This document shows positions 27,592-27,790 of a stretch of DNA of 64,000 bases, piece after piece. How positions within the stretch are numbered: position 1 is the first letter of the stretch; each line of letters starts with the position of its first letter. Source of the stretch: Candidatus Uhrbacteria bacterium (GTDB taxonomy: Bacteria; Patescibacteriota; Patescibacteriia; UBA9934; GWF2-40-263); the NCBI GenBank assembly GCA_016205975.1, contig JACQSK010000012.1, positions 15,210 through 79,209 of the forward strand, written 5' to 3'. Below the pieces are notes generated by a model that had not been told where the DNA came from, ran no database searches, and saw only the letters and a list, made by a program, of their open reading frames with translations. A program made the position numbers and the translations under genes.

Positions 27592-27790
27592 GATGAGGTC
27601 AGGGATGGGGTCAGGTCGCAGGGATGGGGTCAGGTCGGGAATCGGGAATTTTTCTGATAGCACCTGTGGTTATGCAGTATTTGTGATCGTTCAAGACTTT
27701 TCTATTCGCTATAGCCCTCTCAATGGCGGGAGCCAGGCTTGGCTGTCCATCATCAATAATTCCCGATTCCCGACCTGACCCCACATCTCC
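27592..27790. mobile_element. MITE-like non-autonomous element: perfect 25-bp terminal inverted repeats around a 107-bp AT-richer core, with extra tandem end-repeats on the left
   Basis: TIRs ggggtcaggtcgggaatcgggaatt at 27626-27650 and 27758-27782 are exact reverse complements. The left flank carries ggatg(a/g)ggtcagg(tcg) in three tandem copies. No ORF inside. Confidence 0.6.

Follow-up and report, generated by a model that had tools for sequence, protein, structure and literature searches.

What is the block of about 208 nt that lies between the terminators of metG and of a convergent gene in this Candidatus Uhrbacteria genome, and what kind of enzyme could have placed it there? We addressed this question in a stretch of 64,000 nt (64 kb), hereafter called the window. 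An earlier note on this DNA had described the block as a MITE-like element, and the anatomy given there was confirmed by our analysis. The block is built around a 25-mer, GGGGTCAGGTCGGGAATCGGGAATT, which returns as its reverse complement after 107 nt; the inverted arms are perfect over 26 nt and extend imperfectly to 39 nt (87%; 27615-27653 and 27755-27793). The core separating them has a GC content of 46% and contains no ORF. To the left of the first terminal inverted repeat (TIR), the partial tandem copies mentioned in the note resolved into three phased copies of GGGATG(A/G)GGTCAGG, at 27590, 27602 and 27621, with an exact 19-nt direct repeat between 27600-27618 and 27619-27637. Within the 64 kb, the 25-mer had three matches at ≤3 mismatches, compared with 0.00 expected from 100 shuffles. 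The coordinates of all features are collected in Table 1.

Table 1. Positions of the repeat copies and neighbouring signals in the window, and of the TIRs surrounding partner genes in three related loci (L005, L008 and L031, each in its own numbering).
Feature	Position	Strand	Remarks
metG intrinsic terminator	27559..27589	+	hairpin 27559-27581, then T-run; left boundary of the insertion; kept in L037 and L038
Insertion block	27590..27797	.	~208 nt; orthologous site without the block in two related genomes
Tandem partial end copies	27590..27625	+	unit of a few flank bases (..GGGAT) plus outer TIR module GGGGTCAGG(TCG)
Left 25-nt TIR	27626..27650	+	constant outer module GGGGTCAGGTC plus tandem heptamers GGGAATC GGGAATT
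Core	27651..27757	.	107 nt
Right 25-nt TIR	27758..27782	-	exact reverse complement of the left TIR
Tail within the insertion, outside the TIR	27783..27797	.	15 nt; partial complementarity to 27615-27625
Intrinsic terminator of the convergent 120-aa gene (28183..27821)	27804..27822	-	right boundary of the insertion; kept in L037
Terminator hairpin CCCTGAC..GTCAGGG	28239..28258	-	contains GGGGTCAGG; scores as an ordinary terminator
Isolated exact outer module CGACCTGACCCC	39078..39089	-	inside uncharacterised ORF 38881..39384
Hairpin, arms with the outer TIR module only (TGGGTCAGGTCG / CGACCTGATCCC)	47291..47346	.	between TrmB-like and DUF218 genes
Solo exact TIR, in-frame (..RGQVGNREF..)	57566..57590	-	C-terminal domain of MutY-like HhH-GPD glycosylase gene 58329..57439
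Decamer family	1256-1276, 2081-2101, 3242-3305, 3828-3848, ~6430-6460, ~7065-7095, 42390-42420	coding strand	
L005 TIRs	6072-6096 / 6997-7021	inverted	flank a 290-aa Y1_Tnp ORF; downstream copy with 3 mismatches
L008 TIRs	6949-6973 / 7839-7863	inverted	flank a 296-aa Y1_Tnp ORF
L031 TIRs	6982-7006 / 7865-7889	inverted	flank a 281-aa Y1_Tnp ORF

The upstream gene was verified as metG (Pfam tRNA-synt_1g, 1.5e-134), and the block indeed begins directly behind its terminator. The longest metG ORF (25690..) overlaps a tRNA gene (25730-25803) in its 5' part, and the real start is probably 25879, where the database-matching MetG begins. Two related genomes keep the local gene order and lack the element, as the earlier note had proposed to check: L037, with a MetG that is 80% identical and a downstream protein that is 71% identical, and L038, with a MetG that is 77% identical. 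The distance from the metG stop to the convergent gene is 268 nt in the window, versus 63 nt in L037 and ~70 nt in L038, and in L037 both terminators abut, with ..CCGGTTTTTTTGTGC followed directly by GAAAAAATCGCC... Homology of the flanks to the relatives ends at 27589 and restarts at ~27798; the right flank was aligned separately, since MAFFT misplaced it across the large gap. The empty site in both relatives thus indicates that the window lineage gained ~208 nt by insertion, two losses being the less parsimonious alternative. The same filled allele was present in two other samples, one of them on a contig that breaks inside the repeat, and the repeat accounts for contig breaks such as that of L023, which ends within it.

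The note had also suggested a search for target-site duplications. Comparison of the filled site (..TTTTTTCGC, insert, GAAAAAATCG..) with the empty one (..TTTTTTTGTGC joined to GAAAAAATCG..) revealed none. As a candidate, 27783-27798 was considered as a target duplication of the 3' half of the metG terminator and was rejected, the similarity being too weak.

We then looked at the distribution of the 25-mer, which turned out to be multi-copy. When each prokaryotic species was represented by one genome, its 22-nt core was exact at 25 places in 7 of the genomes scanned, i.e., species-level MAGs, of which 5 are titled Patescibacteria, Candidatus Uhrbacteria or "bacterium" and 2 are titled Gammaproteobacteria MAGs. 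A metagenome scan added 8 loci, too few for copy-number statistics, and a scan of viral contigs gave 0 matches. Each MAG had <10 exact copies. Aligned copies are identical over exactly 25 nt and diverge directly outside, and they occur as singles, dimers and groups. Dimer spacers are 18 nt (L006), 85 nt (L017/L035) or 107 nt (window). The outer end of every copy is GGGGTCAG, which fits the consensus GGGGWSAS; directly before its GGGG stand ..GAT, ..AAT or AAAAA, and GTAG is absent. At three further loci (L039-L041), perfect inverted pairs keep GGGGTCAGGTC and differ in the heptamers alone (GGGACCT GGGACTT; TGGAATT CGGAATT; TGGAATC TGGAATT), and more variants were seen elsewhere. The TIR is therefore modular, composed of a constant outer 11-mer and two tandem, lineage-specific heptamers.

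Inverted repeats with this outer end have been described before. Di Nocera, De Gregorio & Rocco (2013, BMC Genomics 14:522; PMC3733652) introduced the term "TIRtron" for a RAYT-like gene enclosed by long inverted repeats and "TIRYT" for its protein. They found the outer motif GGGGWSAS to be common to many TIRs and described moderately abundant TIR families with single, dimeric and grouped members. In the classification of Quentin et al. (2018; PMC6006769), TIRYTs correspond to TnpA_Y1 subclass 2.1, whose members are long, carry an HTH at the C-terminus and come without REP hairpins. The full-length partner that the earlier note had asked for was found in L005, L008 and L031, where the same TIRs surround a transposase gene, and the variant ("dialect") TIRs of L039-L041 flank three homologous TIRYT genes. 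All six partner genes found between these TIRs encode Y1_Tnp proteins, and all lie in related genomes rather than in the window, where a search with 121 TIRYTs (tblastn/blastx) detected no Y1 transposase; the element was thus rightly termed non-autonomous. The Uhrbacteria TIRtrons measure roughly 910-950 bp, their inverted 25-nt repeats tightly flank a single RAYT-like HUH/Y1 gene, and they occupy different genomic locations in different genomes.

The partner proteins are recognised by Pfam Y1_Tnp and by NCBIfam REP_Tyr_transpos (92.4 bits for L008, against a cut-off of 80). They are 281-300 aa long, with invariant NHYHL (HYH) and WSSY motifs. Their C-terminal 85-95 residues gave weak matches to HTH_23, HTH_28 and HTH_SB (E of 0.006-0.1, below the Pfam cut-offs), and for two homologues an HTH_23 match was precomputed. 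Thousands of related proteins turned up in a profile search; of the 120 best, those with a named source were mostly labelled Uhrbacteria or Patescibacteria. Of eight NCBI TIRYTs, five belong to accession series other than that of the source assembly (MBI44377xx) and three gave no accession.

The ends of the TIRtrons also recur by themselves. Solo TIRs in L002, L008, L011, L015 and L021 (all from the CAINGB01 MAG) and in L004 (from the CAYHFQ01 MAG) have ~18 adjoining nt (..AATTTTGCRAATTYRYTGG) in common with the subterminal region of the L008 TIRtron, and thus derive from TIRtron ends and not from bare 25-mers. At another locus, L020, two TIRs (5370-5394 and 6536-6560) lie 1166 nt apart in identical surroundings, which reach well beyond 100 nt to either side and contain a partner with the outer module only (cgacctgaccc). 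This indicates that a longer TIR-containing unit was duplicated in that genome.

These results bear directly on the class of the element. A classical MITE, that is, an internally deleted DDE insertion sequence moved by cut-and-paste at its TIRs, would look much like our block, with perfect TIRs and a short, AT-richer, non-coding core without an ORF. MITEs of the Correia/NEMIS type, likewise short, intergenic and hairpin-forming, are DDE-mobilised and make target-site duplications. Here, however, neither a DDE enzyme nor a target-site duplication was found, the core has no similarity to any transposase, and 6/6 transposase genes located between these TIRs are of the Y1/HUH type. We thus consider a DDE origin extremely improbable; what holds of the term "MITE-like" is the non-autonomous TIR architecture and not the classical MITE class.

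A canonical REP or REPIN mobilised by a RAYT fits in several respects. REPIN-RAYT systems, reportedly described by Bertels and Rainey in 2011 and by Nunvar et al. in 2010, resemble ours in having a non-autonomous inverted doublet that forms a long hairpin, a related transposase gene flanked by the repeat, long vertical persistence of the copies, and no expectation of a target duplication. Moreover, the partners found here pass NCBIfam REP_Tyr_transpos. However, a single 25-mer is not palindromic: it lacks self-structure (-0.3 and -0.1 kcal/mol), and 152/200 and 140/200 shuffles fold equally well. The GTAG/GTGG tag is absent, the spacer is long (107 nt) and unique, and the number of exact copies per MAG contrasts with the tens to hundreds of REPIN systems. 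In addition, long proteins with a C-terminal HTH form subclass 2.1, which is not REP-associated (PMC6006769). A canonical REPIN is thus distinctly unlikely. With the IS200/IS605 elements (IS608, ISDra2), the TIRYT system shares a HUH/Y1 transposase, the lack of a target-site duplication and, by homology, a single-strand chemistry. It differs by an extra DNA-binding domain in the TIRYT and by its TIRs, since IS200/IS605 elements lack terminal inverted repeats and carry hairpins at subterminal positions.

Taken together, the Y1 partners, the GGGGWSAS motif and the empty sites without duplication argue for a TIR dimer of the TIRtron family and against both a DDE-type MITE and a canonical GTAG REP. 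Judged from sequence comparison, 27590-27797 is likely to be a non-autonomous, MITE/REPIN-like TIR dimer of the Candidatus Uhrbacteria TIRtron family, on which a cognate TIRYT would act in trans. The likeness to the published TIRtrons covers the RAYT-like Y1 gene held tightly within inverted repeats, the outer motif, the long protein with its C-terminal HTH, the dispersal of TIRs as singles, dimers and groups, and the absence of a GTAG hairpin. The differences are the host phylum, Patescibacteria; the modular composition, a constant 11-mer with two variable heptamers, documented across dialects; in-frame intragenic TIRs kept at orthologous positions; and the identity of the TIR across several species (25/25), although the TIRYTs of three exact-TIR genomes share just 44-52% identity. 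Several observations count against this best explanation, among them the absence of a TIRYT gene from the 64 kb and the in-gene copy described below. In addition, the ends of the insertion fall 36 nt (tandem copies) and 15 nt (tail) outside the TIRs. The core is known from one locus, its sole match among all fetched loci and 120 TIRYTs being the same locus in another sample, so that TIR-core-TIR is a putative unit of movement.

Based on HUH/Y1 homology and on the REPIN model, a TIRYT encoded elsewhere in the genome would act in trans on single-stranded DNA. Its catalytic HUH/Y1 core would read the conserved outer module GGGGTCAGGTC (GGGGWSAS), and its C-terminal HTH the two lineage-specific heptamers; a change of heptamers between transposase lineages suggests such a division of labour between catalytic core and HTH. 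In single-stranded DNA (z = -6.6) or RNA, the two TIRs of the dimer can pair without mismatch over 26 bp, and this stem would join both ends for cleavage and rejoining, as proposed for REPINs. Neither PMC3733652 nor PMC6006769 contains an experimental demonstration of TIRYT activity on TIRs.

Does the block have a function for the two genes around it? In RNA, either strand of the dimer folds into a highly stable stem (z = -3.6 and -5.8), and the neighbouring genes converge on it, as would be expected if the block were a regulatory palindrome, an additional terminator for both directions or the gene of a small RNA. However, no T-run follows the stem on either strand, and the terminator scanner reported only the two flanking gene terminators and 28258-28239. 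Both genes keep their own terminators in relatives without the element. No promoter-like site was found, no relevant Rfam match was obtained (gathering threshold on the whole window; E ≤ 1 on 27500-27900), and the core is not conserved anywhere else. A regulatory or RNA function is thus very unlikely. The element sits in dead space between two convergent terminators, and at the metG site it is most likely a neutral passenger without host function.

The tandem copies at its left end have a counterpart in a natural population. At one locus from the Hainich aquifer, L029/L009 carry 35 extra nt that are absent from L031, the rest being near-identical. These consist of GAAGTGAT+GGGGTCAGGTCG, then GAAGTGAT+GGGGTCG, so that each unit joins flanking sequence to the outermost 12 nt of the TIR, the same construction as in 27590-27625 of the window. 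This polymorphism, built from the same unit, indicates that the end copies arose recently by local expansion, with a break behind position 12 of the TIR; slippage and abortive transposase action are both conceivable causes.

Copies of the outer module without the heptamers were also present. In all, GGGGTCAGG occurs 6 times in the window versus 0.48 expected. The earlier note had listed 47292-47345 as related to the element. This was correct for the outer 12 nt of the repeat, which are found with 1 mismatch in each arm of a strong hairpin (-21.7 kcal/mol, z = -8.4), and the rest of the repeat is absent. The recurrence noted at 28239-28258 stands only as a 9-nt resemblance: GGGGTCAGG is present there, but the hairpin is an ordinary terminator, conserved orthologously in L038 without the GGGG prefix, and it is probably unrelated to the repeat family.

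The third full copy of the 25-mer, also listed by the note, lies inside a gene. It is exact over 26 nt (57565-57590, minus strand), where it reads ..VRERGQVGNREFGS.., and it forms an in-frame, anciently inherited part of the MutY-like gene rather than a mini-element. Across 120 homologues, the loop is equally long with or without the repeat. The GQV-bearing proteins form essentially one clade in a neighbour-joining tree; within it, near-perfect repeat peptides are scattered and the inner half decays by lineage. This pattern points to one ancient acquisition followed by vertical inheritance. Between four species, the repeat has 0-2 mismatches in a gene with a mean identity of 72.7%, and it ranks as the most conserved of 870 25-nt windows, a statistic that comes from four of the closest homologues, other close ones having drifted in the inner half. 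A degenerate partner for this solo TIR, GAGGTCAGGT at ~57017, was dismissed, since an estimated ~4 such one-mismatch 10-mers are expected by chance.

Several MutY-like homologues (among P0015, P0024, P0027, P0029 and P0030) carry extra inserts of 9-13 residues exactly at the repeat position, for example GPAVAPSNGALAGRQV and GHPATRERRGQI, which suggests that this loop underwent repeated local expansions, like the tandem end copies in DNA. On a 156-kb JGI contig, Ga0620833_000001, which bears both L028 (10740-10764) and L039 (1503-1527 / 2404-2428), the MutY-like gene keeps the exact GGGAATC/GGGAATT heptamers and the only TIRYT seen has GGGACCT/GGGACTT TIRs. The in-gene copy is thus conserved there without an obviously cognate transposase nearby.

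Other genes contain the repeat as well. The 25-mer is free of stop codons in five of its six frames. We found in-frame copies in Ugd (L012/L016), with a loop 5-9 residues longer than in PDB homologues, and in the linker of an HMA-DsbD protein (L007/L010). In L017, both dimer arms lie inside a GT2 glycosyltransferase (Pfam), which had no match among PDB sequences. Annotators should bear in mind that the repeat encodes peptides of Uhrbacteria proteins, GQVGNREF and IPDSRPDP among them. Intragenic REPs, often in repair genes, are on record (PMC3733652, Figure 7), and that paper mentions genome-maintenance genes for DUS, too. In-frame units, notably in DNA-repair genes (uvrA and uvrB, as compared with the MutY-like gene here), are a property of these intragenic REPs and of the Rickettsia palindromic elements, reportedly described by Ogata et al. 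in 2000. Such units add 20-50 residues, whereas the MutY-like copy adds none and only the Ugd copy seems longer.

Simple transposition or insertion explains neither the unchanged length of the MutY-like loop nor the conservation at the nucleotide level. Could the 25-mer then be primarily a selected host cis-element, DUS-like or bound by a domesticated protein, with the hairpin at 27.6 kb as a pair of such sites? The disparity between the invariant 25-mer and the diverged TIRYTs would fit, as would copies kept at orthologous positions across species with diverged flanks, and a copy that stands in-frame without length change in a genome-maintenance gene; the in-gene copies of the other genomes are in other kinds of genes (Ugd, GT2, HMA-DsbD). 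Uptake sequences of Neisseria (DUS) and Pasteurellaceae (USS) similarly are short motifs identical across species, found in-frame without length change, in inverted pairs downstream of genes, and with a bias for genome-maintenance genes. Known uptake sequences have a density of about 1 per kb. In contrast, there are 3 full copies in the 64-kb window, a density 10-100 times lower, and the motif, at 25 nt, is physically linked to a transposase gene, a tight association that recurs at different genomic locations. Moreover, the distribution is all-or-none, with no copies at 1-6 mismatches in the window, which points to templated copying rather than to mutation-driven accumulation. The clean insertion relative to the two relatives also speaks against a host element, and the inner-half decay in other close homologues weakens the argument from the MutY-like gene. 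We thus regard a primary host function as unlikely, and retain the TIRtron-family dimer as the preferred reading.

A more far-reaching idea, which we put forward as doubtful, is that the 25-nt TIR might be a cis-element whose nucleotide sequence is actively preserved in genomes of the candidate phyla radiation, through purifying selection or TIRYT-dependent templated conversion, overwriting loop-coding segments without changing their length and then being kept for long. If true, this would be a mode of repeat spread distinct from cut- or copy-and-paste, possibly linked to genome-maintenance genes.

The repeat is thus of a kind already described and little studied, which is unusually conserved here and also occurs in-frame inside genes. 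To our knowledge, TIRtrons were noticed in 2013 and have had no demonstrated mechanism and almost no follow-up work, and the literature searched gave nothing on RAYT/REPIN together with Patescibacteria. Their anatomy is unusually clean in this group, with an 11-nt outer module common to TIRYT elements of other phyla, a filled/empty pair without target duplication, and end duplications that vary in nature and have their break behind position 12. The known range of RAYT-like repeat systems thereby grows to include Patescibacteria, whose reduced genomes offer little intergenic space and carry copies in-frame inside genes.

Other repeats and structures were seen in the window. Between an anti-sigma/sigma pair and a 126-aa ORF, the GC-rich intergenic region 56760-57000 has apparent helices and a terminator-like hairpin at its end, and gave no Rfam match at the gathering threshold or at E ≤ 1. 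A second repeat family consists of in-frame tandem decamers on the coding strand, GGGCGCAAAG GGGGACAAAG GGCGCAAAG, a near-fit to GGGGWSAS. The decamers were found only in genome-maintenance genes, twice each in UvrB, UvrA and UvrC and once in the NAD-dependent ligase LigA. All window genes bearing a full unit of either the TIR or the decamer repeat (5/5) serve repair or replication; the bare 12-nt outer module at 39078-39089 falls outside this set. Finally, a 57-nt inverted repeat (11160-11216 / 11283-11339; 82% complementary, 66-nt spacer), unlike the TIR in sequence, may be another hairpin element.
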